Below are positions 5,442 to 52,362 of a DNA stretch of 64,000 bases, piece by piece. Below the pieces are notes generated by a model that saw nothing but the letters and a program-made list of their open reading frames with translations, did no database searches and was not told the origin of the DNA. Both the position numbers and the translations under genes were made by a program. Position 1 is the stretch's first letter; the number at the start of each line of letters is the position of its first letter. Source of the DNA: an uncultured Anaerolineales bacterium (GTDB lineage Bacteria > Planctomycetota > Phycisphaerae > FEN-1346); NCBI GenBank assembly GCA_964539385.1, contig CAZIJC010000001.1, forward strand, positions 16,860 through 80,859, in the 5' to 3' direction.

Positions 5442-6266
5442 GTGAGTTCGTCGCCTACCATACTTTACTGCAATTGCACGTACGGCGGCGCTGTGCCCCT
5501 CGACGTGCGAGAGGCCGTGTTGGAGGGGCTCGTGGCGTCGGGCGTGCCGTTCGAGCCGGTGGCCGACCTGTGCGAACTGGCCGCACGACGCGACCCGTCG
5601 CTGGAGCGCCTCGCCCGGTGCGACGACCTGCATGTCATCGCGTGCTATCCGCGAGCGGTCAGGTGGCTGTTCGCTTGCGCCGGTGCGCCGCTGGCCGACG
5701 GCGCCGTCATCCACAACATGCGCGAGCAAAGCGCGGACGACATCCTGGCTCATTTAGCCCCCCACACTCATTTAGCCCCCCGTGAAGACACCACTTATTT
5801 AACCCCCCGTGAACACACGGGGGGCAACCCCCAAACAACCCACAAGCCCCCCCAACCGACACCGACTTTCCCCGAGAGGCAGCCCGGCGAGTGGATCGCC
5901 TGGTATCCGGTCATCGACTACGACCGGTGCCGGAACTGCAAACAGTGCCTGGAGTTCTGCCTGTTCGGCGCGTTCGCGCTCGATGATGCCGGCACGGTCC
6001 GCGTCGCGGCGCCCGACCGCTGCAAACTGAACTGCCCGGCGTGCGCGCGGGTGTGCCCGGCGTCGGCCATCATCTTCCCGAAGTTCCGCGAGGGCGGCCC
6101 CATCGCCGGCAACGAGGGCGTGCTGACCGAATCGGCCGAAGAAGGCATAAAGGCCGACATCAAACGCCTCTCGAAAGGTGACGTCATGGACGTGCTCCGC
6201 AAACGCGCCGCTCGCGCCCGCGCCGAGGCCGCCAAAAAGCACTCGACGGAGCAACCCGACCGGTGA
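5442..6266 (+). CDS. 2[4Fe-4S] ferredoxin-domain protein with an N-terminal Cys-containing domain and a His/Pro/Thr-rich linker
   Basis: GTG start. C-terminal [11 protein letters not shown] and [13 protein letters not shown] are classic CxxCxxCxxxC(P) motifs. N-terminal [10 protein letters not shown] weakly resembles MvhD/FlpD-type domains. The linker is encoded by a short nucleotide tandem repeat at about 5750-5800. Its stop overlaps the next gene start (GTGA). Confidence 0.6.
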
Positions 6267-17835: not shown

Positions 17836-17933
17836 CCGGCCGGCGGGTTCAATCTCCCGGGAAAGCCCGCGCACCGCGCCGCACGGGTTGATTTCGCAGG
17901 GGTCCGGGGGTACGATAGTGCGGAAGCGAGACG

Positions 17934-17971
17934 GGGTCAGGCCCTTCCGAGACGGGGGCTGACCCTTTTTT
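17934..17971 (+). terminator. Rho-independent terminator-like hairpin with T6 tract
   Basis: GGGTCAG-(18 nt loop)-CTGACCC followed directly by TTTTTT. It lies about 100 nt after the permease stop and only 13 nt before the next ATG. Confidence 0.45.
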
Positions 17972-17983
17972 GCGGGGAGCCGT

Positions 17984-19425: not shown

Positions 19426-20388
19426 ATGGCACAGTGGAAACCGAGCGGCCTGGGGCCGGAGTTCACGTACGACCTGACGGAACTCAAGAAGGTCGATCCG
19501 GCGCTCATCCACTACGAGCAGGCCGCATCCGTGCCGACCGGCATGATGAAGCCGAAAGGCATCGCCGTCGGCGCAGACGGGCACCTGTTCGTCGCAGGCG
19601 ACGGGGGCGTGCGGGTGTTCGACCCCGCGGGCAAAACCGTCTTGCAGTTCGACGCCTCAAGGTTCGGAATTGCTAAAGGGGTGTTCGACGCCGCCGGCAA
19701 ACCCGTCTTGCAGTTCAAGACGGGCGGCGAGCCGCACTGCATCGCCCTCGGCAAGACCGGCACGGTTTACGTCGGGATGAAAGACCACGTCGAAGTGTAC
19801 GACGTATCGCTCAAACGCACGGCCGCATGGAAGGGCCTGGGCGAGAGAGCATACGTGACGAGTGTGGCCGCCGGCGAGGCCGACGTGTTCGTGGCCGACG
19901 CCGGCAACCGGGTGCTGCTGCGGTACGATACGTCGGGGAAGTTGCTGAACCGAATCGGCGAGGAAGATGCCGCGAAACATGCCCCGGGTCTCGTTGTGCC
20001 AAGCCCGTACTTCGACGTGGCCCTCGGGCCGGAAGGGATGCTGTGGCTCACCAACCCCGGTCGGCGGCGCGTGGAGTGCTACACGTACGACGGTGCGTTT
20101 CGCTTCGCGTGGGGGAAGTTCTCGATGAAGATCGAGGGCTTTTGCGGATGCTGCAACCCGACGCACCTGGCCATCGACACCGACGGCAACTTCATCACCA
20201 GCGAGAAAGGACTGCCGCGCGTCAAGGTGCACGACGACGAGGGTAACTTCAAGAGCGTCGTGGCGGCGCCCGCCGACTTCGCCGACGGCACCGTGGGTCT
20301 GGACCTGGCGGTGGACGCGAAAGGGCGAATCCTGGTGCTCGACCCCAAGCGGCGCGAGGTGCGCATCTTTGTGAAAAAGCGATCGTGA
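19426..20388 (+). CDS. NHL/YVTN-type six-bladed beta-propeller repeat protein
   Basis: Tool ORF 19327..20388. Start at MAQWKPSG (ATG 19426) is 5 nt after the upstream stop. There are six repeats of the [VI]A.(D/G).G..[FY]V.D type. It contains the unusual run GFCGCCNP. Confidence 0.55.
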   Translation: MAQWKPSGLGPEFTYDLTELKKVDPALIHYEQAASVPTGMMKPKGIAVGADGHLFVAGDGGVRVFDPAGKTVLQFDASRFGIAKGVFDAAGKPVLQFKTGGEPHCIALGKTGTVYVGMKDHVEVYDVSLKRTAAWKGLGERAYVTSVAAGEADVFVADAGNRVLLRYDTSGKLLNRIGEEDAAKHAPGLVVPSPYFDVALGPEGMLWLTNPGRRRVECYTYDGAFRFAWGKFSMKIEGFCGCCNPTHLAIDTDGNFITSEKGLPRVKVHDDEGNFKSVVAAPADFADGTVGLDLAVDAKGRILVLDPKRREVRIFVKKRS

Positions 20389-20566
20389 ATTTGAGATTTG
20401 AGACTTGAAATTCTCTGAGATCTGAGATGTGAAATCTCAGGATTTGAGATTTGAGACTTGAAATCTTCTGAGATCTGAGATGTGAAGTCTCAGGATTTGA
20501 GATTTGAAATTTCCTGAGATGTGAGATGTGAAATCTCAGGATTTGAGATTTCAGATAGCAGATTTG
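20389..20566. repeat. AT-rich tandem repeat, about 54 bp x 3.5, each unit containing a perfect hairpin CTGAGAT-gtgaa-ATCTCAG
   Basis: Unit ATTTGAGATTTGAGACTTGAAAT(T)CTCTGAGATCTGAGATGTGAA(A/G)TCTCAGG repeats starting immediately after the NHL gene stop. GC is far below the window average. The long minus-strand tool ORF 20249..21559 merely translates this repeat. Confidence 0.8.
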
Positions 20567-20595
20567 CGACGGCAGACGGCTGGAAGGAGTAGCGC

Positions 20596-20859
20596 ATGAC
20601 CAGACACAGGGACCGGTCCGAGCGGCGGCGCGAGTTCCTGCGCAGCCTCGTGCGGTACCCCGTCCTGGGTGCGCTGGGACTCTTGGGAGGCCGCCTGGTG
20701 AACAGGCAGGCCGGCACGGGCCCCATCCGGGCCGGCCGGAAGTGCAGCAACCGCGGCATCTGCCGGGGATGCCTCCGGCTCTCAACGTGCTGCCTGCCGC
20801 AGGCGTTGATGGCCCGCAACGTCCTCGACCGTGATGGGCCAAGGCGTCCCACTTTTTAG
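20596..20859 (+). CDS. Small Tat-signal-like, Cys-rich protein (87 aa), hypothetical
   Basis: Strong GGAAGGAG SD 7 nt before the ATG. SERRREFLRSL matches the twin-arginine motif, followed by a hydrophobic stretch. Cys pattern C-x5-C-x2-C-x6-CC. No recognisable family. Confidence 0.4.
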   Translation: MTRHRDRSERRREFLRSLVRYPVLGALGLLGGRLVNRQAGTGPIRAGRKCSNRGICRGCLRLSTCCLPQALMARNVLDRDGPRRPTF

Positions 20860-24689: not shown

Positions 24690-24748
24690 CCCCGCCTGGC
24701 AAGGCGGGGTCGAAGCCCCGACCAGCCCCGCCTGGCAAGGCGGGGTCG
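24688..24748. repeat. Tandem pair of identical hairpin repeats (agCCCCGCCtggcaaGGCGGGGtcg) after the propeller gene
   Basis: Two copies at 24688-24712 and 24724-24748, each a 7 bp GC stem with a TGGCAA loop. Confidence 0.6.
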
Positions 24749-24763
24749 CAGTGTGGTTGACCC

Positions 24764-27136: not shown

Positions 27137-27149
27137 GGACGGACCATCT

Positions 27150-27693
27150 AACCGCAGAGAACGCAGAGAACGCAGAGCAACGGCAAAGAATCGGGCAACA
27201 GCAAAACCGCCTGATACAAAGGTGTCGGCGATGAACGAGGAACTCAACCGGATAACAGAGGCCATCATCGGCGCAGCAATGGACGTTCATCGCGAACTCG
27301 GTCCGGGGCTGCTTGAGTCCGCTTACGAAGCCTGCCTCGCCTATGAACTGATTCAACGCGGCTTCAAGGTCGAGCGGCAAAAGACGCTTCCCTTGAAATA
27401 CCGAGACGTCACATTGGACTGCGGCTACCGAATCGACCTGTTGGTCGAAGGGCAAGTGGTGGTAGAAGTCAAAGCGGTCGAGCAGTGGAACCCGGTTCAC
27501 CAGGCCCAGGTTCTCTCGTACTTGAAACTGTCCGGATGCAGAGTGGGGCTTATCATCAATTTTAACGTGAGGATGCTCAAGACGGGCATTAAGCGGTTCG
27601 TCCTTGGACTGAAGGAGTAACCACGCGCAGACCGTGTGCTCATGGCTGCACGCTTCTCAATTACCCTCTGCGTTCTCTGCGTTCTCTGCGGTT
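27150..27693. mobile_element. GxxExxY-gene cassette bounded by perfect 28-bp terminal inverted repeats (AACCGCAGAGAACGCAGAGAACGCAGAG), inserted between two flavoprotein subunit genes
   Basis: Left arm 27150-27177, right arm 27666-27693 (reverse complement). Each arm contains (AGAGAACGC)n. The RBS and ATG of the downstream gene lie immediately outside the right arm. Confidence 0.5.
27231..27620 (+). CDS. GxxExxY family protein (PD-(D/E)xK-like)
   Basis: 130 aa. GPGLLESAY matches the GxxExxY signature, and the C-terminal block YRIDLLVEGQVVVEVKAV is present. Confidence 0.7.
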   Translation: MNEELNRITEAIIGAAMDVHRELGPGLLESAYEACLAYELIQRGFKVERQKTLPLKYRDVTLDCGYRIDLLVEGQVVVEVKAVEQWNPVHQAQVLSYLKLSGCRVGLIINFNVRMLKTGIKRFVLGLKE

Positions 27694-27710
27694 AAAAGGA
27701 ATGGTCGATA

Positions 27711-36323: not shown

Positions 36324-38855
36324 TTACACAACGACCTCGTTCACGCCTGTCGGCAGGTTCCACGTGCGGCCGACCGTATTATAGGTGATGGTGCCGGTGC
36401 CGACCGACTCGGCGCCGAAGCACAACCGCCGGATCGTCCACACGTCCAACGTGCTATTGTTGATGAAGTAGTTGACGCCTACGCCGCGGACGTACATCAA
36501 GCCCAACGTGGCGTGCGTGCCGGCCGGGATCACCGTAGCCAGCGAAATGGCGGAGTTGTCGATCGCGCCGGCATAGATTGAACGGACATTCGCGTCAAGA
36601 GTCAGACCGGAACCGTTGATCGTGCCGAGCACGGCGACCCTTGCAGCCGAGCCATCGATGTCCCAGGCGGCATTGATCAGGTCGCCACCAACGCGGGCCG
36701 TGCCGAGCGTGTGCCGTCCCGCAATCAGATTCCCGGCCAGGGTCAGGTCCAGGCTGTTGACGTCGCCGGTGGCCCTGAAGTGGTTGATCGAGGGGGTCGT
36801 GATAACGTCGGCGACGCCGCCGCTGTCCGTCCAATCCTGGGCGATCAGCCAGCCGACGGGCGTGCCCGACGTGACAACCAGATCGATCACGCTGCCCAGG
36901 CGCATTGAGAGCGTATCCCTGGCCCCGACCTGCGCGCCGACCTGGACCTCGCCGCCGTTCACGTCGTTGAGCCAGAGTAACCTGAGCGTGCCCGGCACGT
37001 CGATCAGGCTGCCCCCGGCCCCATCGTCCACAAAATCAACGGTGGGGGCATGGATGCGGCCGAGCGAGCCGTCCCAGGCGAGCCCGACGTCGTCGTCCAC
37101 GGTAATGCTTTCGACCTCCGTCGTCACGCCCCGGGCCGTCCTCATGGCGAATGCCGACCGCCTCGTCGTTTCGTACAGGGTCACGTCGAAGCCGTTCACG
37201 CCGTTGGCCACCTCGGCCCAGGACCCCCTCATCACGAAGGTCACGAGGTCGCCGTTGGGGTCCTCGATCTGCATTCTGGAGTTGGGGTGGGCCGCGTCGA
37301 AACTGCCGAACTTCCACACGATGGCGGCCTGGTTGGCGGCCGCATCGGTGTTGTTGGTCTCGTCGGCTTCGGCGATGGTGTCGCCCGAATCCACGACGGC
37401 CAGGACGTTGTAGTTGCCGGCCGGGATGTCCGCCGGCACCTGGCTCACGAGCCAGTAGGTCCTGGCCTGTCCGGCCGTGAGGGAGATGCGGCACGTGCGC
37501 TGGCCGAACAGGTAGTCGCCGCCGTCAATGACGCCGTCTACGGACCCGTACAGTTGGATGGTGGCCAATCCGGACGCCGTTCCGGCGCCGCCGTTGGTAA
37601 CCGCGACGGGAATCCGCCACCTGTCGCCGGGAATCTGCTCGGCGCCCGTGACGAAGGCATCGTCAATCGCGATCGTCAGGTCCGGGCCGACGCCCAGGGT
37701 GCCGACGATCGAGGCATTGTTGGCCTCGGAGTACTCGGTGACGCCGCCGGGCTGATCGGCCACGCCGAACAGCGTGTACCCCTGGCCGCCCGCAGGCGCG
37801 TTGAACGAGATCGTGTCGGTCGTGTCGGCGCCGGCGGCGAGCGTGGTCACGTTGTAGGAGCCGACCTGGGTATCGGCGCCCGCGTCGAAGGTGCCGTCGG
37901 TCGAGGTCCAGAGCGACACCGTCCACGGAGTCACGCCTGGGTCGCCGTCGTCCTCGGCGACCGCGAAACCGGCATTGTTGACCTGCACGGGCACGTCAAC
38001 CTGTTGACCAGCAGCGGCCTGATACACGGTTGCCGCCGCCTCGATCGTCAGGTCCGGCCCGACCGACAGGGTCCCGAGCGACGCCGTGTTGTTGGCGTCG
38101 TCATCCTCGGTGACCTCGGTGTCGGAGTCGGCGTAGCCGAACAGCGTGTACTCGCCGGGCACGGGCGCGGCAAAGGAGATCTGGTTCGCCGTGCTGTCCT
38201 GGCCATCAAGGGTCGTCAGGTTGTAGGAGCCGACCTGCGTATCGCCCGCGTCCCAGATGCCGTCGGTCGAGGTCCACAGCGACACCGTCCACTGGCCCAC
38301 CCCCGGGTCCACGTCCGTGACGGCCTGGGCGAAGCCGGTGTTCTCGACCGTGACGTCAACGTCCACGTTGGCGCCCTCCGCCGCCTCGTACGCGCCGGCC
38401 GCGCCCTGGATCTCCAGGTCGATGCCGACCAGCAGCGTCCCGACGATCGACGTGTTGTTGACCTCGGAGTTTTCGGCAACCTCCTCGTCGGAGTCGGCAA
38501 AGCCGAACAGCGTGTACGTGCCGGCCGCAGGGGCGTTGAAGGTGACCGTGTCGGTGGTGTCGCCCGCGGCAGCAAGGGTCACCACCTCGTAGTTGCCGAC
38601 GTTGGTGTCTTCCCCGGCGTCGAAGACCGCGTCGGCCGAGGTCCAGAGCGACACCGTCCAGAATCCGTCAACGGCTTCCGCGGCGGCATCGCCGATATTG
38701 TTCACCTGAATGTCAACATCGACACCCACGGCACCGCTGAGCGCCTCGTACGTGTCTGCCGCCGCCGTGATCGTCAGGTCTGCCGCCAATAGCAGGCGCG
38801 ACTCCAACGCCTCAAAACCGGGCTTTATGCCGCTTTTGTCGCTGTTTCTGTACAT
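36324..38855 (-). CDS. Secreted repetitive protein with four CARDB-like repeats of about 100 aa and a C-terminal beta-rich domain
   Basis: 843 aa. N-terminus MYRNSDKSGIKPGFEALESRLLLAADL. Internal repeats of the pattern WTVSLWTSTDG..DAGDTQVGSYN.TTL...FNAP..G.YTLFG.AD. No Cys-rich motifs. Confidence 0.6.
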   Translation of the reverse strand: MYRNSDKSGIKPGFEALESRLLLAADLTITAAADTYEALSGAVGVDVDIQVNNIGDAAAEAVDGFWTVSLWTSADAVFDAGEDTNVGNYEVVTLAAAGDTTDTVTFNAPAAGTYTLFGFADSDEEVAENSEVNNTSIVGTLLVGIDLEIQGAAGAYEAAEGANVDVDVTVENTGFAQAVTDVDPGVGQWTVSLWTSTDGIWDAGDTQVGSYNLTTLDGQDSTANQISFAAPVPGEYTLFGYADSDTEVTEDDDANNTASLGTLSVGPDLTIEAAATVYQAAAGQQVDVPVQVNNAGFAVAEDDGDPGVTPWTVSLWTSTDGTFDAGADTQVGSYNVTTLAAGADTTDTISFNAPAGGQGYTLFGVADQPGGVTEYSEANNASIVGTLGVGPDLTIAIDDAFVTGAEQIPGDRWRIPVAVTNGGAGTASGLATIQLYGSVDGVIDGGDYLFGQRTCRISLTAGQARTYWLVSQVPADIPAGNYNVLAVVDSGDTIAEADETNNTDAAANQAAIVWKFGSFDAAHPNSRMQIEDPNGDLVTFVMRGSWAEVANGVNGFDVTLYETTRRSAFAMRTARGVTTEVESITVDDDVGLAWDGSLGRIHAPTVDFVDDGAGGSLIDVPGTLRLLWLNDVNGGEVQVGAQVGARDTLSMRLGSVIDLVVTSGTPVGWLIAQDWTDSGGVADVITTPSINHFRATGDVNSLDLTLAGNLIAGRHTLGTARVGGDLINAAWDIDGSAARVAVLGTINGSGLTLDANVRSIYAGAIDNSAISLATVIPAGTHATLGLMYVRGVGVNYFINNSTLDVWTIRRLCFGAESVGTGTITYNTVGRTWNLPTGVNEVVV

Positions 38856-52180: not shown

Positions 52181-52193
52181 GGCGGGACGGCAA

Positions 52194-52362
52194 GCAAATG
52201 CCTAATGACTAATGACTAATGAATGACCAGACCACAATGGCGAATGACGGCGAAAAGCATCCAACGCCCCGCGTCGCCCCAGGCCATTCGTCATTCGCCA
52301 TTGCCTTTTGATTAGTCATTAGACATTAGTCATTGGGTATCGGGCATTAGGCATTCATGCAG
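52194..52362. repeat. Large AT-rich imperfect palindrome (about 165 bp, arms about 50-60 bp built from TAATGAC heptamers; inner perfect 15-bp inverted repeat CAATGGCGAATGACG), MITE-like
   Basis: Left arm aaatgcctaatgactaatgactaatgaatgacc...caatggcgaatgacg. Right arm cgtcattcgccattg...gattagtcattagacattagtcattgg...gcattaggcatt. It sits between the second pseudopilin gene and the GspK-like gene. Confidence 0.7.

Follow-up and report, generated by a model that had tools for sequence, protein, structure and literature searches.

Short tandemly repeated repetitive (STRR) heptamers of cyanobacteria are the oldest example of bacterial repeats built from a seven-nucleotide unit. According to Mrazek (2007), as cited in PMC4679880, heptanucleotides are the commonest long simple-sequence repeats (LSSRs) in many bacterial genomes. 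The GGGAATC repeats of Xanthomonas are ∼90% intergenic, lie at a mean of 28 nt from the upstream open reading frame (ORF) and are found mostly between co-oriented genes (PMC4692102); the location of Xanthomonas heptamer repeats is kept between species, while their length and sequence are highly variable (Rehm et al. 2015, PMC4692102). TAACTGA repeats of Beggiatoaceae precede start codons, and S1, Csp or CsrA has been suggested, as an untested proposal, to bind them (MacGregor 2015, PMC4679880). Here we describe an AT-rich repeat island at positions 20389-20566 of a 64-kb stretch of Phycisphaerae DNA (the window, whose positions are used as coordinates; L-numbers, L001-L249, denote contigs or lineages compared or scanned). 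The island lies between an NHL-repeat β-propeller gene and an 87-codon ORF (ORF87), and is best filed with the heptamer repeats already described in Xanthomonas, cyanobacteria and Beggiatoaceae. Judged by its own sequence and that of its relatives, it appears to be a locus-specific, vertically inherited and hypervariable heptanucleotide LSSR, an assignment that is well supported.

Two further types of system resemble the island in part. Intercistronic hairpins of other operons create entry points for endonucleases and protect 3′ ends, and those of E. coli malEFG, the Rhodobacter puf operon and repetitive extragenic palindromes or bacterial interspersed mosaic elements (REP/BIME) suggest how segments of an mRNA may plausibly be stabilized. 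HutP reads NAG triplets with four-nucleotide spacers and TRAP reads GAG/UAG repeats.

Like the Xanthomonas LSSRs, the island is a tandem 7-nt repeat that is intergenic, lies between co-oriented genes, abuts the end of the upstream ORF, is stable in position among related species, differs greatly in length and sequence and has so far been assigned no function. It differs from them in its AT-rich unit (TGAGATY), which allows no G-quadruplex, in its 53-nt higher-order repeat with an inverted heptamer, in its Phycisphaerae host and in being the one array of its unit in 64 kb, where the Xanthomonas repeats form a genome-wide family. With the TAACTGA repeats of marine Beggiatoaceae, cyanobacteria and Bacteroidetes and with the cyanobacterial STRRs it shares an AT-rich heptamer on the sense strand, mostly upstream of starts; as with TAACTGA, the same heptamer recurs in unrelated phyla, and for TAACTGA a post-transcriptional role has only been proposed. 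A TAACTGA set, however, is short, with 2-6 copies, and extends over the ribosome-binding site, and a genome has more than 100 of these sets, whereas the island has ∼25 units, ends ∼30 nt upstream, before a normal Shine-Dalgarno (SD) sequence, and is confined to a single locus as far as the available sequence shows. Like the island, REP/BIME elements and intercistronic stem-loops lie between co-transcribed genes, form hairpins and vary in copy number between strains, but REPs are GC-rich imperfect palindromes at hundreds of dispersed loci, with RAYT transposases, in contrast to an AT-rich tandem array at one locus. The island resembles HutP and TRAP sites in that GAG recurs at 7-nt intervals in the sense RNA directly before a gene; those sites, however, have 6-11 triplets in fixed number and are read by Firmicutes proteins, whereas the copy number of the island is unconstrained. 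Particular to the island are an AT-rich unit in a 67% GC genome, what seems to be a datable single origin with clade-wide retention, and independent higher-order repeats in sister lineages. In the literature searched we found no paper combining Planctomycetes with heptanucleotide repeats, nor one combining the intervening sequence (IVS) protein of 23S rRNA with GxxExxY, two gene families considered below.

The island is a heptanucleotide array with a higher-order repeat

The initial annotation of this DNA had described ∼3.5 contiguous copies of a 54-bp unit. Tandem Repeats Finder and a gap-free comparison of the copies confirmed a contiguous tandem-repeat island at 20389-20566, but returned a unit of 53 nt in 3.3 copies (20389-20555; 85% matches, score 243), the third of which is one heptamer short. 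Three 62-nt copies start at 20395, 20448 and 20494, at spacings of 53 and 46 nt, and are 92-94% identical. For the same bases the program also reported a period of 7 nt repeated 22.3 times (consensus ATTTGAG), and the 53-nt unit is itself made of heptamers that read TGAGAT(T/C/G) on the sense strand. Autocorrelation at lag 7 is 0.59 in the island against 0.28±0.03 in shuffled sequence. With up to three mismatches, a 16-mer probe covering two heptamers (GATTTGAGATTTGAGA) matched eight times, always within the island, against 0.14 expected matches. One inverted heptamer in each 53-nt unit creates hairpins.

The array fills the spacer from the NHL stop codon to ∼30 nt upstream of the ORF87 start; its placement between that stop (20386-20388) and the SD of the small twin-arginine ORF (20582-20589) is as originally described. 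Towards the SD its tail can also be read as CAGATAG CAGATTTG CGACGG CAGACGG. The low GC content that had drawn attention to the island was borne out as well (0.34-0.41 against a window average of 0.671), and no other 100-nt stretch of the 64 kb falls below 45% GC. TGA stops occur in all three sense frames. The island shows both features that define simple-sequence repeats and LSSRs (unit 1-11 nt), namely a short unit repeated head to tail and polymorphism of length and sequence between close relatives. Its copy number varies, but the array is bounded by a stop codon and an SD that are both intact and has no promoter-like site, whereas the repeat of a phase-variable contingency locus lies inside an ORF or promoter. 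GAG recurs in it with four-nucleotide spacers (period 7), although the number of triplets is not fixed.

Several other identities were rejected or set aside as the main reading. A clustered regularly interspaced short palindromic repeat (CRISPR) array had already been discounted for want of spacers, and this holds: the units are contiguous, the 62-nt copies start only 53 or 46 nt apart and no cas gene is present among the Pfam-annotated neighbouring genes. A dispersed REP/BIME palindrome finds no support in the sequence covered: there is no further copy of the island in the window at three or fewer mismatches, nor any away from this junction in ∼130 kb of syntenic sequence from relatives. The inverted repeats are internal heptamers, and neither the terminal inverted repeats nor the duplicated flank of a miniature inverted-repeat transposable element or an insertion element was found. 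Rfam returned no match in the whole window at the gathering threshold and, for 20300-20700 at E≤10, only weak matches that fall well short of the threshold, most of them to miRNA and snoRNA families of eukaryotes. Loops exposing GGA, as a CsrA-type reading would require, occur three times in the window but are absent or reduced in L045-L051. A 24-mer from the island (GAGATGTGAARTCTCAGGATTTGA) had no match in a metagenome scan of a collection that evidently lacks the source sample and is uninformative on copies in the same genome. Nothing in this evidence indicates a specific RNA gene or binding site.

The array occupies the same junction throughout one clade

We compared the same junction in twelve other lineages, picked down the ranking of NHL homologues. 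A heptamer array was present in six of the six sampled lineages of one clade and absent from six outgroup lineages. In neighbour-joining trees of the concatenated flanking proteins, the six array lineages formed one clade, whose members share at least 72-75% identity, and the six array-less lineages fell outside it at no more than 66%. The spacer measures 207 nt in the window and its conspecifics (L001-L005), 401 nt in L045, 104 nt in L046 and L047, 105 nt in L048, 90 nt in L049 and L050 and 125 nt in L051. In every array lineage the array begins at the stop codon and ends ∼30 nt short of the start, sparing the SD, and lag-7 autocorrelation is 0.59-0.79, compared with 0.24-0.28 for shuffled sequence. 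The boundary motif GAGATT(T/C)CAGA at the 3′ end of the island is shared, as is the SD, and positional homology of the arrays is therefore indicated.

What is conserved across the clade is only the 7-nt periodicity and the heptamer consensus. The sense strand reads TGAGAT(T/C/G) or TGAAAT(C/T); the GAGAT core is the most constant part in the six lineages, and position 6 is freely T, C or G. The window and its strain variant have a higher-order period of 53 (and 46) nt, and that of L045 is 31/62 nt, L045 being the closest other lineage to the window species; the others show only multiples of 7. As a repeated unit, the GUGAA hairpin is restricted to the window species (window and L003), and the L045 array has a single similar hairpin, with the loop CTGAA, at its 3′ end. 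The relatives, in which the initial annotation had recommended a search for the unit, hence carry a heptamer array at the same junction but not the 53-nt unit; the 54-nt unit and GUGAA hairpin that the annotation had taken as key features are confined to one species.

Among the outgroups, the NHL gene and the next gene overlap in L053 and L247 (…GTGATGG… and …TCATGAG…), a signature of translational coupling, and the spacers of L052 and L248 are 39 and 27 nt of ordinary sequence. The simplest history would be that the array arose once, on the stem of the clade, at an originally tight junction, with no sampled loss since. Inserts of other kinds are found at the junction in the remaining two outgroups: a long GC-rich palindrome fills it in L249 (3898-3999), and a TGGATGG...CCATCCA simple-repeat hairpin (z −3.3) lies there in L054 (10985-11081), where no small ORF was called. 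The junction is either permissive or one that repeatedly favours hairpins.

The array changes faster than synonymous sites

Contig L003 is ∼99% identical to the window over 10.9 kb and so belongs to the same species. The first 4,772 aligned bases contain 52 differences, of which 11 are inside the 178-nt island (6.2%). At third codon positions of five neighbouring genes there are 26 differences in 1458 (1.8%), which gives the island ∼three times the synonymous density (binomial p = 4e-4). Immediately around it, across the 3′ end of the NHL gene, the 29 nt of spacer beyond the island, ORF87 and the spacer that follows ORF87, none of 820 positions differs. Several of the differences are the same A/G or C/G variants moved between units, including A/G between units 1 and 2, a pattern that unequal exchange or conversion produces. 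In addition, a 757-nt contig of low coverage, L005, lacks exactly one 53-nt unit; copy-number variation among strains had been proposed as a check in the initial annotation. Assembly collapse could, however, have had the same effect.

The comparison marks the island as a mutational hot spot rather than a conserved sequence. Replication slippage together with unequal exchange or conversion between units is the mode of change that the data support, and accounts for the 90-401 nt range of spacers, the ∼3-fold density of substitutions, the swapped variants and the lost unit. An island that outpaces synonymous sites is not what a sequence-specific RNA or a precise protein-binding array would look like, and both of these earlier suggestions lose ground accordingly.

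Hairpins form on the sense strand but are not conserved between lineages

The 7-bp stem with a GUGAA loop reported initially is perfect at 20422-20440 (H1), but carries one change in each of the other two copies. An alternative hairpin (H2) is formed by AAAUCUCA and UGAGAUUU around a GGAUU loop. H1 and H2 are mutually exclusive, the GGA and GUGAA hairpins competing for the same bases. Every spacer was folded on both strands against 200 dinucleotide-preserving shuffles. The sense RNA of the window island folds at −70 to −74 kcal/mol (z ∼−4 to −4.6), and the sense fold is more stable than the antisense fold in every array lineage because that strand is G+U-rich. Excess stability ranges from z −8.2 in L045, −4.6 in the window and −4.3 in L046 to −2.1 in L049, −2.0 in L051 and −0.4 in L048. 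Both the position and the sequence of the hairpins vary between lineages, which is not the conserved structure expected of a cis-regulatory RNA. Of the structured intergenic RNA suggested at the outset there remain the hairpins, the folding excess and a spacer that is probably transcribed, whereas the unit and its hairpin are species-confined and have no Rfam counterpart.

Similar heptamer arrays are common elsewhere

An 18-mer from the island (TCTCAGGATTTGAGATTT) was found at 39 loci in 185,579 GTDB representative genomes; none was multi-copy and none came from the window species. About 10 of the 39 lie in GC-rich Planctomycetota or Acidobacteriota or on a Verrucomicrobia-like contig, with similar heptamer runs or short-motif hairpins, and the remainder resemble chance or conserved coding matches. 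Exact (GATTTGA)3 occurred at at least 120 loci in metagenomes, with flanking GC contents of 0.31-0.70 among the matches listed, and at 34 loci in viral contigs, compared with 8, 14 and 16 for three composition-matched permuted heptamers (2-4-fold). Several cyanobacterial STRR heptamers were also among the database matches. Heptamer arrays are generically common, and GATTTGA is only mildly favoured.

Among the matches listed, 62 loci have a GC content of at least 0.5; gene calls based on a GC3 heuristic place their arrays between co-directional genes 12 times in the sense and 5 times in the antisense orientation, a weak bias. About half of the listed arrays that follow a sense-strand gene start within 30 nt of its stop codon, as the window array does. 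An inverted heptamer within 150 nt is no general feature, being present at 20 of 120 listed arrays and 20 of 176 control regions.

In 17 of the 62 GC-rich loci the array lies inside an ORF, never in the orientation that contains stop codons. Runs of 3-5 GATTTGA units are in frame inside GC-rich genes of L077, L094, L096, L102, L114, L147, L152, L162, L170 and L171, among them argininosuccinate lyase (argH), MutL, 2-oxoacid dehydrogenase E2, CheA and FGAM synthase, each flanked on either side by matched Pfam domains. In every case the coding strand reads TCAAATC and encodes the peptide SQISNLK, and the runs are mostly in linkers.

The same heptamer run stands at unrelated junctions, beside IVS-protein genes and in frame in enzyme and signalling genes. 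Some templated or insertional process, so far unrecognised, might spread GATTTGA/TGAGATY arrays among GC-rich Planctomycetota, Acidobacteriota and Verrucomicrobia-like bacteria, or selection might maintain them there as periodic platforms for protein binding. We regard this as improbable; if it were true, the window island would be one long-lived insertion of that system.

A length-tuned intercistronic spacer is the tentatively favoured reading

The absence of a promoter-like site and of a convincing terminator leads us to infer that the array is most likely transcribed within the message that carries the PQQ-like and NHL propellers, ORF87 and the ferredoxin genes. No σ70-like −35/−10 pair was found in the island on either strand, and the sole terminator candidate nearby is a 5-bp stem inside the NHL gene, of a kind that arises at chance frequency. 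The reading that we put forward, at somewhat less than an even chance, is that the island is a transcribed intercistronic spacer with a generic, length-tuned effect. The array replaced an ancestral junction that was tight or overlapping and, where overlapping, bore the signature of translational coupling, and in the window species segmental duplication has reorganised it into three and a bit 53-nt units with one inverted heptamer each. On this proposal its sense RNA would form G·U-containing hairpins separated by AU-rich single strands. The spacer might then uncouple translation of the downstream Fe-S module, which has its own SD, from that of the upstream propeller genes, while AU-rich single-stranded cleavage sites and protective hairpins could give the upstream and downstream mRNA segments differing stabilities. 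Changes in array length would tune this effect, which would be generic and not sequence-specific.

Several points weigh against this proposal. Co-transcription, processing and the effect on translation or stability are all steps that we infer. Excess structure is uneven, with none in L048 (z −0.4) and marginal values in L049 and L051. No compensatory base-pair changes were seen, a result obtained without formal covariation analysis on repeats that cannot be aligned unambiguously between lineages; within the species the variants are one-sided A/G changes (U-A to U·G). The very high rate of substitution and turnover fits neutrality as well as it fits a function of composition only, retention in six of six lineages may reflect a self-renewing, slippage-prone array instead of selection, and a site that has accepted unrelated inserts in L249 and L054 may simply be permissive. 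The same observations suit a neutral, slippage-prone microsatellite that was seeded once in a permissive junction, regenerates itself and is invisible to selection. This explanation, doubtful in our view though a serious one, agrees with change ∼three times faster than at synonymous sites, with indels of whole units, with the conservation of periodicity and of neither sequence nor structure, with the unrelated inserts tolerated at the junction in L054 and L249, and with the frequency of (GATTTGA)3 in metagenomes (at least 120 loci) and viral contigs (34 against 8, 14 and 16). It is less easily reconciled with the lack of any loss in six of six lineages, down to ∼72-75% protein identity, despite bacterial deletion bias, with the constant sparing of the SD and of ∼30 nt before the start, or with the unusually conserved locations of Xanthomonas heptamer repeats (PMC4692102).

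The remaining explanations carry less weight. It is unlikely that a multimeric protein binds GAG or GAGAU every 7 nt of the RNA, or a nucleoid protein the AT-rich DNA, and so controls the Fe-S genes. The constancy of the GAGAT core, the strict period of 7 and the position of the array on the sense strand directly upstream of a gene would suit such a platform, and the GAG-N4 period matches the geometry of HutP sites. Binding of S1, Csp or CsrA was likewise proposed for TAACTGA repeats by MacGregor (PMC4679880). However, no candidate binding protein was identified, though no genome-wide search for one was made, a range of ∼10 to ∼55 heptamers is hard to fit to a defined oligomer, listed arrays elsewhere stand in both orientations (12 sense, 5 antisense) and within coding regions, and the GGA hairpin loops that would suit CsrA are found only in the window lineage. 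Less probable again is a scar left by a small-gene cassette that once carried an ORF, since lost, for a four-helix-bundle (23S rRNA IVS) or GxxExxY protein. The same window carries a GxxExxY gene between inverted 9-mer arrays that is absent from L003 and leaves remnants in L045 and L046, four-helix-bundle genes in L041, L009 and L161 are flanked by GATTTGAGATTT arrays, and the window shares the 24-mer GTGAAATCTCAGGATTTGAGATTT with L041 and TCTCAGGATTTGAGATTTGAGAC with L009; 18 nt of this sharing, however, are the search pattern itself, none of the six lineages has an ORF or recognisable fragment in the spacer, the array has no partner arm of opposite polarity, and an IVS-protein homologue (tblastn) lies beside only 1-2 of the 120 metagenome arrays listed. 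At the DNA level, the island stands alone as AT-rich sequence within DNA of 67% GC and varies in copy number between strains as contingency loci do, which could suggest an internal promoter, an UP-like element or a phase-variable spacer that switches downstream transcription. We give this very little credence, as neither strand has a −35/−10-like pair and length steps of 7 or 53 nt over 90-401 nt go far beyond the scale of promoter spacing. A free-standing small RNA (sRNA), for example a CsrB/RsmZ-like sponge, is hardly credible: the window has three GGAUU-loop hairpins and two more GGA motifs in the SD, but L045-L051 do not conserve these loops, the same bases are needed for the rival GUGAA hairpin, no csrA-like ORF emerged from a crude motif scan of the window in six frames, and the sRNA gene that had been suggested is bounded by neither a promoter-like site nor a convincing terminator and belongs to no Rfam family.

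No new RNA class, defence system or mobile element can be claimed from the island. Its value would lie in being a clean, datable bacterial heptamer satellite with one probable origin, clade-wide retention, fast turnover and differing higher-order repeats in sisters; overlapping ancestral genes and derived spacers of 90-401 nt offer a natural series on how a satellite may tune operon expression.

Gene context

The array and its flanking features are listed in Table 1. On the same strand the island is preceded by genes for squalene-hopene cyclase, a protein of no assigned function, an ABC ATPase, an FtsX-type permease, a PQQ-like propeller and the NHL propeller, and followed by ORF87 and genes for a 4Fe-4S protein, a NapH-like polyferredoxin, a PQQ-like propeller, a NuoE/F-like protein, a GxxExxY protein and a GltD-like protein. 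All relatives compared have the same gene order. The NHL protein has named homologues in metagenome-assembled genomes of Phycisphaerae and other Planctomycetota. ORF87 had no Pfam or NCBIfam match, and its sequence is identical in Joint Genome Institute (JGI) metagenome contig Ga0111034_1081972 (83.5 kb), from which the window derives, and in four contigs of other samples. The window contains no tRNA or tmRNA.

Table 1. Features of the repeat island and its flanks (window coordinates)
Feature	Position	Strand	Evidence or energy
NHL-repeat β-propeller gene, 320 aa (JGI call), stop TGA 20386-20388	19426-20388	+	
Heptanucleotide satellite (TGAGATY)n, ∼25 units, sense strand G+T-rich	20389-20566	+	Tandem Repeats Finder, lag-7 autocorrelation, low GC
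Higher-order unit 1, 53 nt; first base is last base of NHL stop codon, in heptamer phase	20388-20440	+	
Higher-order unit 2, 53 nt	20441-20493	+	
Higher-order unit 3, 46 nt, one heptamer fewer	20494-20539	+	spacing 46
Partial unit 4 and decaying heptamer tail (GATTTGA GATTTCA GATAGCA GATTTGC GACGGCA GACGG)	20540-20580	+	
Hairpin H1 copy 1, CUGAGAU-GUGAA-AUCUCAG, perfect	20422-20440	+	−9.5 kcal/mol
Hairpin H1 copy 2, one change (U·G wobble)	20475-20493	+	−9.2 kcal/mol
Hairpin H1 copy 3, one change (first pair lost)	20521-20539	+	−8.3 kcal/mol
Alternative hairpin H2 copy 1, AAAUCUCA-GGAUU-UGAGAUUU	20432-20452	+	−7.7 kcal/mol
Alternative hairpin H2 copies 2, 3	20485-20505, 20529-20553	+	−7.7, −11.5 kcal/mol
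Shine-Dalgarno GGAAGGAG of downstream ORF; comparable SD in every array lineage	20582-20589	+	
ORF of 87 aa, twin-arginine motif RRREFL, ATG 20596, first gene of Fer4/NapH-like/PQQ module	20596-20859	+	

Further upstream, the 148-nt spacer at 17836-17983 between the FtsX-type permease and PQQ-like genes is conserved across the clade. It contains TTGATT...TACGAT, with 8 of 12 matches to the σ70 hexamers and below the cut-off of the scan, followed by a GGGTCAGGCCC...GGGCTGACCC hairpin whose T6 run lies ∼10 nt from the SD. The hairpin might serve as an attenuator in a leader or terminate the upstream unit.

Small-gene cassettes with repeat arms

The GxxExxY/PDDEXK_3 gene (TIGR04256; 27231-27620) lies between the NuoF-like and GltD-like genes, in an element that spans 27137-27710. 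It is bracketed by inverted 9-mer arrays, (CGCAGAGAA)x3 at 27153-27182 and (CTCTGCGTT)x3 at 27666-27690. The conspecific L003 (7194-7230) is without the gene and retains one right-arm unit. At the same site, L045 (17941-18119) has the left arm and the first 15 codons, and L046 (11127-11299) an ORF-less hairpin; in L049 (17425-18317) the left arm is duplicated together with the 3′ end of the upstream gene. The element looks like a small mobile cassette with simple-repeat arms.

Four-helix-bundle/23S-rRNA-IVS-protein genes (PF05635, TIGR02436) are present in L041 (2420-3430), L009 (350-1320) and L161 (6238-6533), and in L041 and L009 they are inserted between hsdS and hsdR of type I restriction-modification operons. 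In L041 the hsdS 3′ end and the array are repeated four times, and the array is read through in frame, which adds SDLKSEI heptads to the C terminus of the protein. Such repeat-armed small-gene cassettes, and the in-frame heptamer runs in housekeeping genes, may merit more attention than the island.

Other repeats in the window and its relatives

A second heptamer-built element occupies 52190-52355, between two same-strand ORFs. It has TAATGAC x3 on the left, mirrored GTCATTA-type units on the right and an inner GCGAATGAC/GTCATTCGC pair, and folds as one long hairpin (−78 kcal/mol, z −5.6); both its heptamer and its two-arm architecture differ from those of the island. REP-like GC-rich palindromes (AGCCCCGCCTGGCAAGGCGGGGT) follow the gene for a 597-aa PQQ-like protein in the window (24690-24763, 2 copies), L045 (15357-15561, 3 copies) and L046 (8582-8756, 4 copies), and further spacers of the cluster hold other GC-rich palindromes. 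These are the ordinary dispersed-repeat type of the lineage, unlike the AT-rich island. The surroundings of 5745-5830 are GC-rich; here CATTTAGCCCCCCGTGAA(G/C)ACAC is repeated directly and imperfectly in three copies, with GGGGGG after them, a possible C-run/G-run hairpin. Finally, a tandem repeat within long ORFs at 37756-38660 (period 366 nt, 2.4 copies, 70% matches) is probably a repeated protein domain.

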